From assembly GCA_001819495.1 (NCBI GenBank), contig MHMW01000028.1, positions 5,398 through 69,397 on the forward strand: 64,000 bases of DNA, in the 5' to 3' direction. Shown piece after piece: positions 4,107 through 61,237 of the stretch (position 1 is its first letter; every line of letters starts with the position of its first letter). The notes beneath the pieces were generated by a model. That model worked only from the letters and a program-made list of their open reading frames with translations. It was not told the DNA's origin and ran no database searches. The DNA comes from Candidatus Portnoybacteria bacterium RBG_19FT_COMBO_36_7. Lineage in GTDB: Bacteria; Patescibacteriota; Minisyncoccia; Portnoybacterales; GWB1-42-6. The translations under genes were made by a program, and so were the position numbers.

Positions 4107-4165
4107 GAAAACCTCCTCAGTTTTTTTAACTTCAGGGGTTTTTGTTAAGATTGTTTTTCGGAGGA

Positions 4166-4837
4166 TTAAACCGCCATGAGTTGCGCTTCTCGTCCGACCA
4201 ACGAACCGTAACCATTGAAAGCATACCAGAGTTCGGTTGAAAGGACGCTGGAAGCAAGAAAGAGTTGATTGAATTTCGCCCAGGCAACGAAAAGGATAGC
4301 GAAGTCGTCTTTGATATTGCCAGGCCGATTTTCTTCCAAAATCCGGCTAACTTCGCCTTTTTTGACCGCACCTTCGAGGGTCGCGATCATAGTCATAAGC
4401 GACGAGGTTTTCACCGACAGCGATTCAATTAAAGATTCAAAGAGGACCAAAACTTCGCAGAACCCTCCTTTTATCATCTTTTCTGAAATTATTTTCCACG
4501 AGGTCGAGTCCACAAGGCCATTTCCGGCAAGCGATTCTCCTAATTCCCGCAAGTTCAGCTTCCTTAATGTGGGAAGATCTGCGAAATCTTTTTCATCCAT
4601 CTTCTGCCTGATTTTCCCGATCATCTTTGTGGCTCCCGTGAGAGATTGCATGGAGAAATTCAGGTGCTTGCTGATAACGGAGGTATCGCCATTTTGGCCG
4701 TTCAGCTCAGCAAGGATAACATCTTCAAGGGCAACATTGCCCAACTCAAGCTCTGCATAAGCTAAGCTCAGAAACCGCGAAAGTCTCGTTGATTCCGCCA
4801 AATAAATATGACATGGTTGATGATTTTTTCCACCCAT
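4166..4837 (-). CDS. Hypothetical protein.
   Basis: 223-aa ORF with GGAGA upstream of the ATG. No recognisable motif. Confidence 0.45.
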   Translation of the reverse strand: MGGKNHQPCHIYLAESTRLSRFLSLAYAELELGNVALEDVILAELNGQNGDTSVISKHLNFSMQSLTGATKMIGKIRQKMDEKDFADLPTLRKLNLRELGESLAGNGLVDSTSWKIISEKMIKGGFCEVLVLFESLIESLSVKTSSLMTMIATLEGAVKKGEVSRILEENRPGNIKDDFAILFVAWAKFNQLFLASSVLSTELWYAFNGYGSLVGREAQLMAV

Positions 4838-25627: not shown

Positions 25628-25686
25628 AATTTTGAATTTTGAAATTCGAATTTCAAATCAAATTCTAATTCGTTAATTTTGAAACA

Positions 25687-34316: not shown

Positions 34317-35294
34317 TTGTTTAAAAATTATAAAATTTTGAATCTGTTATCTGTAAAAGATATCAAAGGCCTGTTGCAAAAATATGATGCCGCCCCTCTG
34401 AAACGCATGGGGCAGAATTTTTTAATCAACCGCGGCGTATTGGAAAAAATAATTGAGGCGGCGGATCTGGACAAAAAAGATATTGTCCTTGAAATCGGGC
34501 CGGGCTTGGGCACCTTGACCCAAGAGCTGGCCAAACGCGCCAAAAAAGTCATCGCCATAGAAAAAGACAGAAAATTCGCCCAAATCCTGAAAGAAACGCT
34601 GAAACAATATAAGAATGTGAAGATAATTCAGGGGGACGTTCTTGAATTTCCAATTTCCAATTTCCAATTTCCAATTAAATTTCAAATTTCAAATTTCAAA
34701 TTTCCAAAAAAATATAAATTAATAGCAAATTTGCCCTATAATATCGCTTCGGCTGTTATCAGAAGATTCTTGGAAACAGAAAATACGCCACAGGAAATGA
34801 TTGTAATGGTCCAAAAGGAAGTTGCCCAGAGAATTTGCGCCTGCCCGCCATCGCTGCGCTCAGGCGCTAGCAGGCGGGCCTCGCCCGTCCGAAGCTCCGC
34901 TAAACGTAGCGAAGGAGGGCAAACCGCCCGCATGTCTCTTTTGGCTGTTTCCGTCCAGTTTTACAGCGAACCAAAAATTATCAGCCATGTTTCAAGGGGC
35001 TCTTTCTGGCCGAGCCCAAAAGTTGATTCGGCTATATTGAAAATAGTTCCCTTTAGCGACCCTGATGCCCGAATACACCCCAATGACCCGAATGCTTTTT
35101 TCAAAATTGTTAAAGCCGGATTTTCCAGCCCGCGCAAGCAGCTGGCTGGCAATTTGAGCAAACGCTTAAAAATAGAGCGCCATATAATAGAAAGAGTGTT
35201 AAAACAAGCGGGGATTGACCCCAGCCGCCGGGCTGAAACACTGAGCATGGAAGAATGGATAAAGATAGTCAAATATCTAATTCCCAATATCTAA
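34317..35294 (+). CDS. rsmA: 16S rRNA (adenine1518/1519-N6)-dimethyltransferase RsmA/KsgA, carrying two lineage-specific in-frame insertions. The ORF-track start is a TTG; the ATG at MGQNFLIN (34407) is an alternative.
   Basis: GQNFLIN, EIGPGLGTLT (SAM motif I), NLPYNIAS, and the C-terminal FWPSPKVDSAILKIVP block. Confidence 0.85.
   Translation: MFKNYKILNLLSVKDIKGLLQKYDAAPLKRMGQNFLINRGVLEKIIEAADLDKKDIVLEIGPGLGTLTQELAKRAKKVIAIEKDRKFAQILKETLKQYKNVKIIQGDVLEFPISNFQFPIKFQISNFKFPKKYKLIANLPYNIASAVIRRFLETENTPQEMIVMVQKEVAQRICACPPSLRSGASRRASPVRSSAKRSEGGQTARMSLLAVSVQFYSEPKIISHVSRGSFWPSPKVDSAILKIVPFSDPDARIHPNDPNAFFKIVKAGFSSPRKQLAGNLSKRLKIERHIIERVLKQAGIDPSRRAETLSMEEWIKIVKYLIPNI
34646..34708 (+). repeat. 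Tandem heptanucleotide array (ATTTCCA/ATTTCAA, about 9 units) inside the rsmA coding sequence, encoding FPISNFQFPIKFQISNFKFP.
   Basis: Directly visible: gaatttccaatttccaatttccaatttccaattaaatttcaaatttcaaatttcaaatttccaaa. The same motif family forms intergenic microsatellites elsewhere in the window. Confidence 0.7.
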
Positions 35295-35412
35295 TTTCCA
35301 ACAAAATTTTAAATGCCTTAATAACTAAAAAGTCTCGCTTCGCGGGACCCGTCTAGTGGCAGGCGAACTGGATTGAAAATTAAAAATTGGTAATTGGTAA
35401 TTTTATAGACAT

Positions 35413-35453
35413 GTGGATAACTGATTGAAAATCGGTTATTTTTTTGTGGATAA
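35413..35453 (+). promoter_or_regulatory. Two perfect DnaA-box 9-mers (TGTGGATAA) in direct orientation, 32 bp apart, in an AT-rich spacer.
   Basis: acaTGTGGATAActgattgaaaatcggttatttttttGTGGATAAatatg; a TATAAT-like (agTATAATaaa) follows. Confidence 0.5.
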
Positions 35454-35482: not shown

Positions 35483-36445
35483 ATGTTATCAAATAAACCC
35501 AAAAAATTCAGCGTTTTCGTGGCGGTTTTGATATTATTTTTTGGCGTTTTTTTTGGTGGCTTTTTATTTATCAAATCCAAAAGCGGCTCTGCCAGCATCA
35601 GCGGCCAGATAAGCTATCTTCTTGGCAGCAATACAAATTCAATCGCGCAGGATAAAAATCTTGATTCTGACAGCGACGGCCTGCCCGACTGGCAGGAAAA
35701 AATCTACAAGACCGACCCCAAAAAAGCGGACACTGACGGCGACGGCTACATGGACGGCGAAGAAGTGGCTTCCGGATACGACCCGACCAAAAAAGCGCCC
35801 AATGACGCCTTGCCCGGCACAGACGCAAGCAAAGCGCGGCCCATGCCAAAAAACCTGACCAAGGCCTTAAGCCAAAAGCTTGGCCAGGCAATTTTGAGCG
35901 GCAAAATTGCTTCTTTTAACAAAGAAACTGGCCAGCCCTTGACCGCCAAAGAAATCCAAAGCGAAGAAGGACTGAAACAATTGATTGAAGAAGCTTCCAG
36001 CCAAATGACAGCCGATTTCTCGCTTCCCGACATTCCGAATAAAGAAATAAAAATTTCAATCAGAATCAACGAAAAAGAAACACTGGCTTATCTGGATAAT
36101 CTCGGCCAATGCCTTCATGAAATGCCAAAAAAACCTGAATCGGAACTGCAATTTCTTTACGAAGCAGTCAAGAGCCGCAATTTTTCCAAAGTTAAAGAAA
36201 TCAGCGGCCTTTATGAAGATACTTATAATAAATTAAAGCAGGTAACCGTGCCGCCCAATATGGTTTCGGTGCATAAAAGAATTCTGGGTGTTCTCTGGGC
36301 AACCAATAATATTTACAAGGCGGTTATTAACATTGACCAAGATCCACTCAAAACAACTATCGCTTTTATGAGCTATGAAAACATAGCCAAAAAAACAGAA
36401 AAATTAATCCTGGACATGATAAAGGAAAGAGCAAAGTTTTTCTAA
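35483..36445 (+). CDS. Secreted/membrane-anchored protein with thrombospondin-type-3-like Ca-binding repeats (DxDxDG).
   Basis: N-terminal TM/signal segment; DSDSDGLPDWQEKIYKTDPKKADTDGDGYMDGEEVASGYDP. Confidence 0.5.
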   Translation: MLSNKPKKFSVFVAVLILFFGVFFGGFLFIKSKSGSASISGQISYLLGSNTNSIAQDKNLDSDSDGLPDWQEKIYKTDPKKADTDGDGYMDGEEVASGYDPTKKAPNDALPGTDASKARPMPKNLTKALSQKLGQAILSGKIASFNKETGQPLTAKEIQSEEGLKQLIEEASSQMTADFSLPDIPNKEIKISIRINEKETLAYLDNLGQCLHEMPKKPESELQFLYEAVKSRNFSKVKEISGLYEDTYNKLKQVTVPPNMVSVHKRILGVLWATNNIYKAVINIDQDPLKTTIAFMSYENIAKKTEKLILDMIKERAKFF

Positions 36446-42113: not shown

Positions 42114-42796
42114 ACGGATCCTCAAAACAAAAATCAAGCGTCCTGAAAAAAATTCCCATTGCCGATATCAAAGACAATGTGGTTATAATGAAAGACACCT
42201 CGCTAAGAGGCGTTTTAATGACAAATTCGCTCAATTTTTCTTTAAAATCAACCGAGGAACAGGACGCTATCACATACCGATATCAGGATTTCTTAAATTC
42301 GCTTGATTTTCCGCTCCAGATACTGATTGTCACCAGAAAATTTGACGTTTCCGATTATCTGGTCATGCTGGAAAAAAAGCGCAACGAGCAGGATAATGAA
42401 CTTTTAAAAATCCAGGTTTCCGAATACATTGATTTTATCAAAGGACTGACCCAGTTGGTCAATATCATGAGCACCTATTTTTATCTTGTTGTGCCTTTCT
42501 CTCCAAGCGAAGAGGCAAAAAAGAAAGCAGAGGGAAAGGGGATATCGGGCAATATCACCGGCCTTTTCTCGGGATTTGGCAAAAAAGACGCCCAGCAGAA
42601 AATCCAGAGCTATGACGAACTGCGAACCGGCCTCTGGCAGAGAATGGAGTATATTTCTTCAGGCCTTTCGGCCATCGGCCTAAAAACCGTCACCTTAAAC
42701 AACGAGGAATTGCTTGAGCTTTATTATCGGATGTATAACCCTGATGCCAAAGAAAAGCCGAAAATAGAGACGGAACAACCAATTCCCAATTCCTAA
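42110..42796 (+). CDS. Type IV secretion-associated hypothetical protein. It loosely resembles the N-terminal region of Gram-positive VirB4/PrgJ-type proteins.
   Basis: IPIADIKDNVVIMKDTSLRGVLMTNSLNFSLKSTEEQDAITYRYQDFLNSLDFPLQILI pattern. Weak; context only. Confidence 0.3.
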   Translation: MNGSSKQKSSVLKKIPIADIKDNVVIMKDTSLRGVLMTNSLNFSLKSTEEQDAITYRYQDFLNSLDFPLQILIVTRKFDVSDYLVMLEKKRNEQDNELLKIQVSEYIDFIKGLTQLVNIMSTYFYLVVPFSPSEEAKKKAEGKGISGNITGLFSGFGKKDAQQKIQSYDELRTGLWQRMEYISSGLSAIGLKTVTLNNEELLELYYRMYNPDAKEKPKIETEQPIPNS

Positions 42797-42821
42797 TTTC
42801 CAATTTCCAATAAAAATCCCA

Positions 42822-43251: not shown

Positions 43252-45096
43252 ATGGATTTGCCATTTTTTTCAAAAAAACCGAAAGCCAAAAAGGACGATA
43301 AAGAAGAAGAACGGGATATTATCCAGCAGGTGGCTGATCTGGTTGCCCCGCCGGCCTTGCAGATAAGCTCCAATCATCTGCAGATCGGCGGAAAATTCTG
43401 CCGCGTCCTTTTTGTCTTCACTTATCCAAGGCACCTGGTCACCAATTGGTTCTCTCCGATCTTAACCCTTGATAAAGAAATGAATGTTTCCATGTTCATC
43501 CATCCGGCCGACACCAATGTGGTCTTAAATCAGCTCAGAAAAAAAGTGACTCAGGTCCAGTCGCAGATATCCATAGAAGAGGAGAAGGGCAAAGTCAGAA
43601 ATCCGGTTTTGGAAACTGCCCTTCATGACATGGAAGGATTAAGAGACGTCCTCCAGCAGGGGACCGAAAAGTTCTTTTATTTTGGCATCTATCTGGCTCT
43701 TTTTGGCAATTCCTTAAAAGAGATAGACGAAGTTGAAAACGAAATCCGTTCTTCCCTTGAATCAAAGCTTGTTTATGCCAAGCCGGCTTCTTTCCAGCAG
43801 GAGGCAGCTTTTTATTCCATTCTGCCCTTAGCCAAAGACGAGCTATATATCAACAGCCCTTTAAATACTTCTCCCATCTCAAGCACCTTTCCTTTTGTTT
43901 CCTCTGACCTTTCACATAATAAAGGCATCCTCTATGGCATCAACCGCCACAACAACAGCCTGGTGCTTTTTGACCGATTTTCAATGGAGAACGCCAATTC
44001 GGTCATCTTTGCCAAATCGGGCGCCGGCAAAAGCTACACTGTCAAGCTGGAGGTCCTGCGCTCGCTCATGCTTGGCACAGACGTAATTGCCATTGACCCG
44101 GAAAACGAATATCAGTATTTAACCGAAACTGTCGGCGGCTCCTACATCAAAATTTCCATTAATTCGCCCAATCATATCAACCCTTTTGATCTGCCCATGC
44201 CGGCCAGGGACGACCGGCCGGCCGATCTTCTGCGCACAAACATCATTAATCTGGTCGGGCTGCTGCGCATCATGCTTGGCGGGCTGACTCCTCAGGAAGA
44301 CGCAGTGCTTGACAAAGCGCTTTCGGAAACCTACGCTTCCCGCGACATCACGCCCGAATCCGATTTCACAAAAGTGACCCCTCCTTTGATGGGCGACTTA
44401 AAAACTGTTCTGGAAAACATGGAAGGCGGACTGGCCATTGCCCAGCGCCTGGAAAAATACACCACCGGCTCCTACGCGGGCTTTTTCAACCAGCCCACAA
44501 ACATCGCCATCAAGAACAAAATGGTTACTTTTTCCATCCGTGACATGGAAGAAGAATTGCGGCCGGTAGCCATGTATGTTGTTCTGCATTATATCTGGAA
44601 TTTAATCCGCGCCCAGCTCAAAAAGAGAATTCTGGTGGTTGACGAAGCCTGGGTGATGATGAAAAACGAAGACGCCGCTTCTTTTATGTTTGGCATTGCC
44701 AAGAGATGCCGCAAATATTTCCTGGGGCTGACGACAATCACCCAGGACGTGGCTGATTTTATGACTTCGCCCTACGGCAAGCCGATTGTCAGCAATTCAT
44801 CAATTCAGTTATTGATGAAACAGTCGCCGTCCACGATAGAAATCATCAAACAGACCTTTAACCTGACCGACCAGGAAAAATATCTGCTGCTTGAGTGCAA
44901 TGTCGGAGAGGGAATATTTTTTGCCGGATTAAAACACGTTGCCATCAAAGTTGTCGCTTCGTATTCCGAAGACCAGGTAATTACTTCTGACCCGGCCCAG
45001 CTTTTGGAAATTGAAAAAGCTAAAACAGAACTATCTGAACAGGAAGCAGTCCAGAAACAGCAAAAAGACAAGCCCTTAACCAACGAACCAGCTTAG
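43252..45096 (+). CDS. VirB4/TrbE/PrgJ-family type IV secretion ATPase (Gram-positive-type, about 614 aa).
   Basis: Walker A IFAKSGAGKSYTVK, Walker B ILVVDEAWVMM, and an N-terminal I.P.A...S.HLQIGG.F.RVLFV..YP signature of conjugative VirB4 homologs. Confidence 0.8.
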   Translation: MDLPFFSKKPKAKKDDKEEERDIIQQVADLVAPPALQISSNHLQIGGKFCRVLFVFTYPRHLVTNWFSPILTLDKEMNVSMFIHPADTNVVLNQLRKKVTQVQSQISIEEEKGKVRNPVLETALHDMEGLRDVLQQGTEKFFYFGIYLALFGNSLKEIDEVENEIRSSLESKLVYAKPASFQQEAAFYSILPLAKDELYINSPLNTSPISSTFPFVSSDLSHNKGILYGINRHNNSLVLFDRFSMENANSVIFAKSGAGKSYTVKLEVLRSLMLGTDVIAIDPENEYQYLTETVGGSYIKISINSPNHINPFDLPMPARDDRPADLLRTNIINLVGLLRIMLGGLTPQEDAVLDKALSETYASRDITPESDFTKVTPPLMGDLKTVLENMEGGLAIAQRLEKYTTGSYAGFFNQPTNIAIKNKMVTFSIRDMEEELRPVAMYVVLHYIWNLIRAQLKKRILVVDEAWVMMKNEDAASFMFGIAKRCRKYFLGLTTITQDVADFMTSPYGKPIVSNSSIQLLMKQSPSTIEIIKQTFNLTDQEKYLLLECNVGEGIFFAGLKHVAIKVVASYSEDQVITSDPAQLLEIEKAKTELSEQEAVQKQQKDKPLTNEPA

Positions 45097-45177
45097 AATA
45101 ATTTCCAATTACCAATAACCAATTTCCAATAAAGTCCCGCTTTGCGGGACTGGATTAGAAATTAGAAATTTTAAGAT

Positions 45178-45588
45178 ATGGCGACTGCCGAAGAATTATA
45201 CGAACAACAATTTAACCAAGACAGAGCGCGGCAGGAAGCAATGGCAGCCGAGCAACAGCTCAAGGCAAGCGGCAGAAGCGAGCCGGCGTCTTTTCCCTGG
45301 CTGATGCTTTGTGTGGCGATAATTTTTGACCTCGTTGGTTTTATCCCTATTCTTAATATTTTTACCGATATACTTGCCTGTCTAATTCTTTGGCTCTGGA
45401 AACATTCCTATAATTCAAAGACCAATCCGCTAATAGACATTGTGGCCGCAAAAATCGTGGATTTTCTATGTTTGGGATTTTTGCCTTCCAGCACCTTTAC
45501 TGTTGTTTATTCCTATATCAAAAAGAAAGCTGCCTCCAAGGCAAATTCGGCAGTCGGAGGCAGATTTTTAGCAAAATTAGCAACATAA
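45178..45588 (+). CDS. Small membrane protein (2-3 TM), type IV secretion-cluster associated; hypothetical.
   Basis: Hydrophobic segments WLMLCVAIIFDLVGFIPILNIF and ILACLILWLW. Confidence 0.4.
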   Translation: MATAEELYEQQFNQDRARQEAMAAEQQLKASGRSEPASFPWLMLCVAIIFDLVGFIPILNIFTDILACLILWLWKHSYNSKTNPLIDIVAAKIVDFLCLGFLPSSTFTVVYSYIKKKAASKANSAVGGRFLAKLAT

Positions 45589-61044: not shown

Positions 61045-61237
61045 TTACAGACGGTTAAATTTGATAAAAATTTAAATAAGACCTGGCCGCCTCGGTTATT
61101 GGCGGGCAGGTAATTTCTAATTTCTAATTTAGTCCCGCGGAGCAAGACTTTTTTGTCTCCCTTCGGGAGACCCCCTCAGAGGGGAGAAATTAGGTATTAG
61201 AAATTGGTTATTATTTAAGTTGACTAGAATAACTCGG

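Follow-up and report, generated by a model that had tools for sequence, protein, structure and literature searches.

Repetitive DNA that interrupts or adjoins bacterial genes has been described in several settings. In neuO, carried by prophage CUS-3 of Escherichia coli K1, the repeat 5'-AAGACTC-3' occurs in 3-53 units, the gene is OFF in 65.6% of 64 genomes, and minority repeat lengths can be measured within one culture (PMC13001214). The heptanucleotide tracts of hmw1A and hmw2A in Haemophilus influenzae comprise 13-38 copies, vary between strains and belong to genes of the cell surface and of host interaction (PMC2651432). Rickettsia palindromic elements are in-frame repetitive DNA found at surface regions of conserved enzymes, the fold of which is kept (PMC10969869), while the TAACTGA repeats of Beggiatoaceae, Cyanobacteria and Bacteroidetes, among which heptamers predominate, lie mostly at gene boundaries and are of unknown function (PMC4679880). 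Here we describe a heptanucleotide array within rsmA (ksgA), the gene of a predicted 16S rRNA A1518/A1519 dimethyltransferase, in a 64,000-nucleotide stretch of Candidatus Portnoybacteria bacterium RBG_19FT_COMBO_36_7 (contig MHMW01000028.1, forward strand). This stretch is referred to as the window, and coordinates are positions within it. A previous sequence-only reading had marked the array as a potential phase-variation switch. Judged from sequence comparison, the array is probably an old, slippage-born 7-nt repeat that now forms a static, in-frame coding loop of a functional RsmA.

The array occupies 34645-34705 and reads (AATTTCC)4 AATTA (AATTTCA)3 AATTTCC. It consists of two four-unit sub-arrays around a truncated unit, and not of nine clean units. 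Sub-array 1 (34645-34672, + strand) contains four perfect AATTTCC units and encodes (E)FPISNFQFP. The 5-nt truncated unit AATTA (34673-34677, +) splits the array and gives a TAA stop in a shifted frame. Sub-array 2 (34678-34705, +), made up of three AATTTCA units (34678-34698) and one AATTTCC (34699-34705), encodes KFQISNFKFP. Tandem Repeats Finder reports the region 34645-34707 as period 7 with 9.3 copies, 89% matches and a score of 84, the highest of any tandem repeat in the window. The presence of a heptamer repeat inside rsmA is thus confirmed by both direct reading and the program. The repeat is interrupted, however, and its longest perfect run is four units. At an offset of seven nucleotides 49 of 56 positions match, compared with a maximum of 35 in 100 Markov simulations of the window, and the array is therefore real and well above chance. 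The two sub-arrays are direct repeats and not inverted ones, and RNA folding revealed neither structure (z -0.2) nor an inverted partner. Translation of the array gives FPISNFQFPIKFQISNFKFP, which stands directly before NLPYNI.

The gene itself is intact and is predicted to encode a functional RsmA/KsgA. The open reading frame (ORF; 34317-35294, + strand, 325 amino acids, start codon TTG) scores 237.1 bits against the ksgA model TIGR00755 (cut-off 171) and matches Pfam RrnaAD, while its 172 bits against the Erm model fall under the cut-off of 212 for that family. The protein is identical to OGZ33559.1 (P0121), from a Candidatus Portnoybacteria metagenome-assembled genome. Residues E59, G61, G63, G65, D107, N138 and P140 do not vary in alignments of 27 and of 116 homologues, a set that covers motif I (E-x-G-x-G-x-G), which binds S-adenosylmethionine (SAM), the aspartate of motif III and the catalytic motif IV, NLPY (34728-34739, +), which holds N138 and P140 and lies at the end of strand beta4, directly downstream of the loop. 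The AlphaFold2 model (predicted local distance difference test (pLDDT) 88, predicted template modelling (TM) score 0.85) displays the two-domain KsgA fold, with a Rossmann-like N domain and a helical C domain, and Foldseek superimposes it on Bacillus subtilis KsgA (6ift) with a target-normalised TM-score of 0.85 and E = 1e-28. Within this model the repeat corresponds to residues 110-131, a coil with a pLDDT of 65-68 that is flanked by strand 101-105 (beta3, ending in GDVL) and strand 134-138 (beta4, leading into NLPY). The alignment and the model agree that the loop begins directly after the SAM-binding GDxL motif, and the earlier assignment of the array to the loop before NLPYNI is upheld. 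The codons for NFKFPKKYK (34692-34718, +), in which Y133 and K134 are nearly invariant (alignment A1), form the end of the ancestral short loop; their counterpart in ErmC' (1qam) is an FKFPK..YK motif at the same position as the window loop end NFKFPKKYKLIANLPY.

As the sequence-only reading had pointed out, gain or loss of one unit shifts the frame. Changes of one or two units in either direction yield products of 115-139 amino acids that lack motif IV, and after the gain of one unit or the loss of two translation ends at the TAA within AATTA; changes of three units keep the frame. Unit number was compared across 161 related rsmA loci from species-representative genomes and metagenomes, in which the closest matches to the window RsmA have 60-62% amino-acid identity, the strain-level comparison consisting of two short contigs, derived from other samples, in the European Nucleotide Archive and of clusters of relatives. 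The first of these contigs (L001, ERZ4902948, 950 nt) is 99.7% identical to the window and its array is exactly alike; its sole indel relative to the window is a 1-nt (G) deletion at 34891, within a GC-rich insert and away from the array. The second (L162, ERZ4902897) starts at the array and displays the same units with one substitution. Eleven conspecific locus pairs, in which the flanks are at least 95% identical, revealed no difference in unit number, and in ten 90%-identity clusters of array-bearing RsmA (35 members) the loops were identical, again with no change in the number of units. In all 161 related loci RsmA keeps one and the same frame on either side of the loop, and none is out of frame.

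The design of the array is also shared with other species. The L165 loop reads AATTTCC AATTTCT AATTTCC AATTTCC AATTA, and in those of L167 and L170 four perfect AATTTCC units precede AAATA and a second half that has decayed. The L168 loop is made up of two units, a 33-nt GC hairpin insert, two further units, AATAA and a decayed second half, while L169 contains four AATTCCC-type units. The RsmA proteins of these species are only about 54-60% identical to that of the window. A count of four units is therefore kept across five species, with four units plus a truncated unit in the window, L165, L167/L170 and L168; of sub-array 2, L167 and L168 retain a decayed counterpart and L165 and L169 none. 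As these species have it in common, the arrangement of four units, one truncated unit and about four more is older than their divergence. Comparison of orthologues, which the sequence-only reading had proposed as a check on phase variation, thus returned the same array in same-species assemblies and a four-unit design common to relatives.

Extension of the comparison to the wider clade showed that the loop is a hotspot for heptamers. Period 7 is the best nucleotide period of the loop in 84 of the 161 loci, the next most frequent period reaching a count of 16, and among species representatives it is best in 26 of 46 Patescibacteria compared with 1 of 30 genomes from other phyla. A census of 850 kb of related loci counted 50 period-7 arrays within this loop, which contributes 9.7 kb, and 25 across the 242 kb of gene boundaries and spacers. 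The remaining interior of ORFs (598 kb) yielded 17, of which about 12 belong to two further loops of RsmA. The units are specific to lineages (TCCAATA, ATACAAG, GTTACAA, AAAACTA, ATTGAAA and TTTTCAA), and each keeps phase with the conserved (N/K/S)-Y codons upstream of YK(V/I)(V/I)ANLPY. Perfect arrays form only from units that are free of stop codons in all three frames, such as AATTTCC, TCCAATA and ATACAAG, as a DNA process filtered by ORF integrity would yield. In 40 of 45 loops the periodicity is higher than when the same peptides are recoded with the codon usage of the gene itself (mean periodicity 0.71 observed, 0.52 recoded and 0.37 codon-shuffled), a period-7 signal at synonymous sites that extends across the clade and must therefore arise in the DNA and not in the protein. 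Units are also more alike within a genome than are units at the same position in different genomes (79% versus 60% in 42-nt loops; 72% versus 44% in 39-nt loops), and lineage-specific substitutions occur in all units of a genome; the units have thus undergone concerted evolution. Across the clade the length of the loop varies between 10 and about 54 residues, and its sequence is highly variable.

These observations can be accommodated by the following scenario. Replication slippage would have duplicated 7-base units in tandem, the first of them probably seeded from the TTC AAA TTT CCA codons of the ancestral loop (FKFP, as in ErmC'), which contain the unit AATTTCC, and the repeat would have grown upstream from these codons. 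Because a 7-nt unit does not comprise whole codons, all three frames of the repeat are translated, which gives the peptides of seven-residue periodicity FPISNFQ and FPIKFQISNFK. Purifying selection would keep the array in frame and, in this lineage, would maintain its length and sequence as well, with the loop tolerated or used as protein and not as a DNA signal. Since the Patescibacteria loops are lineage-specific heptamer arrays, slippage and homogenisation appear to act on an evolutionary time scale and to be filtered by frame. The fallback offered by the sequence-only reading, that the repeat has been exapted as a tolerated loop, is the one best supported by the conservation and frame data.

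It should be emphasized, however, that three sets of observations weigh against this interpretation. Firstly, sub-array 1 is better conserved than the surrounding catalytic-domain DNA, with 31-32 of 33 nt (94-97%) identical to L165 and L167 where the flanking rsmA DNA is 57-68% identical. Identical codons number 9/10, 9/9 and 8/9 in sub-array 1, when about four are expected from the shared peptide and the codon usage of each genome (P = 0.0015, 0.0002 and 0.004). A merely tolerated loop does not predict such conservation of synonymous sites. Because the heptamer is read in three frames, every position of the unit falls, in one copy or another, on a first or second codon position, and selection on the peptide together with occasional homogenisation could thus constrain all seven positions and mimic synonymous constraint. 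Secondly, the scenario does not account for the density of intragenic heptamer arrays in rsmA, which is roughly 40-fold that of neighbouring genes; a plausible reason would be the dispensability of KsgA, which would allow frameshifted intermediates. Thirdly, units could be homogenised without a change in loop length only through slips of 7 or 14 nt, and hence through frameshifted intermediates or double events, neither of which was ever observed in the 161 loci, the conspecific pairs or the clusters.

It could be argued from these same observations that (AATTTCC)4AATTA, and similar loop arrays in Patescibacteria, are selected as DNA or RNA, for instance as a binding site or a signal like that of the arrays that flank intergenic hairpins, and need only stay translatable. 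The synonymous-site conservation, the concerted units at constant length and the concentration in rsmA keep this proposal alive. It is further favoured by the enrichment of the unit family at gene boundaries in the window, where it forms the arms of three intergenic hairpin modules, and by the L169 loop, which has 25 nt in common with the intergenic array at 42781. In opposition to such a role, the RNA of the rsmA array lacks structure and an inverted partner, other clades employ different units at the same site (TCCAATA, ATACAAG and GTTACAA), and the loop unit is not repeated in the 13-20 kb around L165 and L167, nor within 3 kb on either side of 36 other loci. The alternative source of apparent synonymous constraint given above, three-frame selection on the peptide with homogenisation, applies here also. 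We consider a selected nucleotide-level element, whether a shared binding signal or a slow, clade-wide toggle, to be unlikely; in the form of a toggle, rare 7-nt slips may switch the ribosomal dimethyltransferase off and later be reversed.

Equally doubtful, in our judgement, is the proposal that the peptide itself is needed, such that a loop rich in Phe, Pro, Asn and Lys serves as a lid of the SAM pocket or as a contact with rRNA, and the periodicity of the DNA is a historical trace. The sequence KFPIS(N)FQFP is kept in at least five species, KFPIS is retained where a GC element replaces the remaining loop (P0010, P0013, P0023 and P0038), and the loop both follows GDxL and finds a counterpart in the FKFP of ErmC'. 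The extreme variability of the loop in length and sequence across the clade, its modelling as a coil of moderate confidence and a periodicity stronger than the peptide requires are difficult to reconcile with a strict demand on the protein. A conspecific strain, moreover, tolerates an insertion in the middle of the loop: L097 (3001-3918) differs from L088 (3001-3882), with flanks that are 100% identical, by a 36-nt (12-residue) in-frame GC insert within the (ATACAAG)n array.

The contingency locus envisaged by the sequence-only reading is less probable than either of these. Frequent slippage of the tract would flip RsmA between ON and OFF and so change 16S dimethylation, ribosome maturation and kasugamycin sensitivity. 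The arithmetic of the unit is compatible with such a switch, as changes of one or two units truncate the protein before motif IV, and the concerted evolution seen across the clade implies 7- or 14-nt slips on an evolutionary time scale. KsgA is dispensable in model bacteria. The low-coverage contigs L162 and L163, which end or switch at arrays, could reflect heterogeneity or, equally, repeat-induced assembly breaks. Against these considerations, the perfect run is of only four units in an interrupted array, whereas known heptanucleotide switches contain 13-38 or 3-53 units with about two thirds of genomes OFF (PMC2651432, PMC13001214). Array length is equal in the three assemblies of the species, none of the 161 relatives is out of frame, the 11 conspecific pairs and 35 cluster members display no unit-number polymorphism, and four units are kept in five species. 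The idea of a phase-variation switch is thus not borne out, there being no length variation in strains while array length is kept in relatives. Phase variation is unsupported by any test run and, on the sequence evidence, this rsmA should not be listed as phase-variable.

Several candidates for OFF alleles or for regulatory use of the array were considered and rejected. P0167 is truncated exactly at the array; its contig, L163, switches to unrelated DNA within the array. In this contig (ERZ17912254, positions 1-1129, coverage 1.39) the sequence is identical to L087-type rsmA up to the heptamer array and then enters an unrelated ORF of 208 amino acids, which is a chimeric join or rearrangement at the repeat and not a change in unit number. 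P0001 and P0163 are likewise not OFF alleles of the array, their frameshifts being 1-nt indels outside it. P0001 is the product of the L001 copy of rsmA, which is frameshifted by the deletion described above; either an assembly error or a real null allele is possible. Programmed -1 frameshifting was entertained because A AAT TTC fits the pattern X XXY YYZ, and was discarded because the units of other clades are non-slippery and the zero frame is intact. An internal promoter or terminator was also dismissed, there being no convincing consensus match in or beside the array and no RNA structure.

The least probable account, that the array is the footprint of a mobile element resembling a miniature inverted-repeat transposable element (MITE) in which an intergenic module of heptamer arms and a GC hairpin inserted and later lost the hairpin core, draws on the three intergenic modules with heptamer arms around a GTCYCGC-NNN-GCGGGAC hairpin and on the insertion of GC hairpin elements into the rsmA heptamer loop of relatives (L097, L168 and L104), but it is contradicted by sub-arrays that are direct and not inverted, by an array that is continuous and in phase with the ancestral loop codons, by the lack of another copy of the GC insert in the window and by the presence of the array in relatives without a hairpin.

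In addition to the heptamer loop, rsmA contains two further variable regions. The first is a GC-rich, in-frame insert of 78 nt (72% GC) at 34842-34919 (+/- 1-2 nt, + strand), which encodes about PPSLRSGASRRASPVRSSAKRSEGGQ and comprises two hairpin-type modules. It is unrelated to the heptamer array, sits after QKEVAQRICA and is disordered in the AlphaFold2 model (residues 177-200, pLDDT < 50). The hairpin of module A has a folding energy of -26.9 kcal/mol and a z score of -3.7, and module B a z score of -0.7. At the same codon, each module is found by itself in L082, L083 and L084, with 93-98% DNA identity, in species with RsmA proteins that have only about 60% amino-acid identity to that of the window. 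Of 124 relatives, 108 have the base state TGCGCCAAACCGCCC without interruption, and the remaining 16 carry one of several GC hairpins at this site. No second copy of the insert was found within the window, and a search with its peptide returned no candidates and was uninformative. GC elements also seem to land in heptamer arrays, as in L097, where the insert lies within the loop array, and in L168, where the 33-nt hairpin follows unit 2 of the AATTTCC array. The second region, a third variable loop in the gene (35052-35087, +; DPDARIHPNDPN, a CCCGAATGA-type repeat), is the RsmA linker after PKVDSAI(I/L)K and before FFKIVKAGF; it overlaps a Tandem Repeats Finder array at 35068-35094 and has a pLDDT of about 72. 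In L090, L095, L110, L124, L138, L154 and L046 this linker contains period-7 arrays (e.g. IRLKIENRKWKVD and KISNPKCQIPKP) or inserts of up to about 70 residues. A further length difference was seen in a cluster of 11 RsmA proteins, in which P0182, compared with P0085, is extended by 34 residues (TRAAAKSKSASLSFLPSSRKRDSVAEEEDKSSS) inserted close to the N terminus; this insertion is missing from the other ten members.

The unit family of the rsmA array recurs elsewhere in the window. The AATTTCC-family motif AATTTCCAATTTC, with up to two mismatches, has 37 matches compared with an expectation of 12.6 +/- 3.6, and clusters are present at 25634, 35279, 42781, 45100 and 61112, in agreement with the shared intergenic motif noticed from the sequence. 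At a threshold of 17 of 21 matching positions the window contains seven period-7 arrays and none of period 5, 6, 8, 9 or 10. Six of the seven lie at gene boundaries, and only the rsmA array is deep inside a gene. One heptamer-type array (35272-35301, +), found by Tandem Repeats Finder and motif search, covers the last rsmA codons and the stop (..KYLIPNI*) and forms the left arm of an intergenic module. Another, identified by motif and period search at a gene boundary (42778-42812, +), reads AATTCCC AATTCCT AATTTCC AATTTCC and belongs to the rsmA unit family. The 25 nt that the L169 loop array (AATTCCCAATTCCTAATTTCCAATT) has in common with the window are identical to positions 42781-42805 of this boundary array, a match that may represent either a shared element or coincidence between arrays of one unit family (roughly 1 in 64). 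A common design is seen in three intergenic regions (35272-35402, 45100-45170 and 61111-61213), where a heptamer array is followed by a GTCYCGC-NNN-GCGGGAC hairpin and an inverted heptamer array. In the module at 45100-45170 (+) an AATTTCC-type array precedes the hairpin GTCCCGC-TTT-GCGGGAC and the inverted array ATTAGAAATTAGAAATT. The heptamer arms extend the stem of the hairpin (RNA fold of 45095-45180: -20.2 kcal/mol, z -4.2), and the module may be a terminator-like or MITE-like element. A search of the whole window against Rfam gave a single match, a tRNA at 520-602.

It was considered whether loops follow a genome-wide heptamer dialect as a general rule. The unit recurs in the window but not around the other loci, and since L165 and L167 do not reuse theirs in 13-20 kb, the sharing of units between loop and spacers is not general. 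A peptide search of public databases with the translated array returned only ORFs of 31-74 amino acids without domains (P0123-P0162), and there is thus no evidence of the repeat within other real proteins. These matches are translated AATTTCN-type arrays, for example from Desulfonema magnum and Symploca, and as 'hypothetical proteins' they are probably spurious gene calls on intergenic repeats. Among the very few intragenic arrays found outside rsmA are the adjacent, in-frame (TTTCAGG)5 and (CACCTGG)4 of L050 (Yanofskybacteria, 4124-4213), which lie in a membrane-protein-like ORF of 600 amino acids. In the spacer downstream of rsmA and upstream of the ORF at 35483-36445 are the only two perfect DnaA boxes of the window (TTATCCACA; 35412-35420 and 35445-35453, - strand), 33 nt apart.

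This study removes a tempting annotation of this rsmA as phase-variable, and shows that many Patescibacteria use translated 7-base repeats to form a surface loop of an enzyme of ribosome maturation that is universally conserved. The loop offers a natural system for the domestication of slippage-prone DNA into protein, for frameshift 'tunnelling' tolerated by a non-essential housekeeping gene and for the predominance of heptamers among tandem repeats in these small genomes. GC-rich hairpin inserts and heptamer arrays, moreover, inflate and fragment protein predictions in candidate-phyla genomes. The literature searched contained no paper naming both 'candidate phyla radiation' and 'simple sequence repeats'.

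When set beside the systems with which we began, the window divides between several of them. Its other six period-7 arrays fit the TAACTGA repeats, from which they differ in their AATTNCN unit family, in the inverted arms around GC hairpins and in the presence of one array deep in a conserved gene. The rsmA array resembles the contingency loci of H. influenzae in being a short tandem repeat in which gain or loss of units would alter expression; it is, in contrast, short and invariant, and lies in a cytoplasmic housekeeping enzyme. It shares with neuO a coding 7-nt tandem repeat, reading in three frames and a full-length protein only at a frame-keeping number of units. Unlike neuO, however, it has no more than four perfect units, is interrupted, is never out of frame and is of constant length in strains and in several species. 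The Rickettsia palindromic elements are the best parallel for the GC insert at 34842-34919 and for the inserts of L097 and L168. Those elements are about 150 bp long, dispersed and palindromic, and encode conserved peptides, whereas the heptamer array is local, tandem, non-palindromic and probably self-seeded, and the GC insert, for its part, lacks a second copy in the window. The beta3-beta4 crossover loop of the KsgA/Erm family, as seen in ErmC', occupies the same position and has the same FKFPK..YK loop end; the window loop is about 16 residues longer, and the loops of Patescibacteria are translated heptamer repeats. Of the descriptions considered, that of a coding tandem repeat domesticated as a permissive loop fits the rsmA array best.

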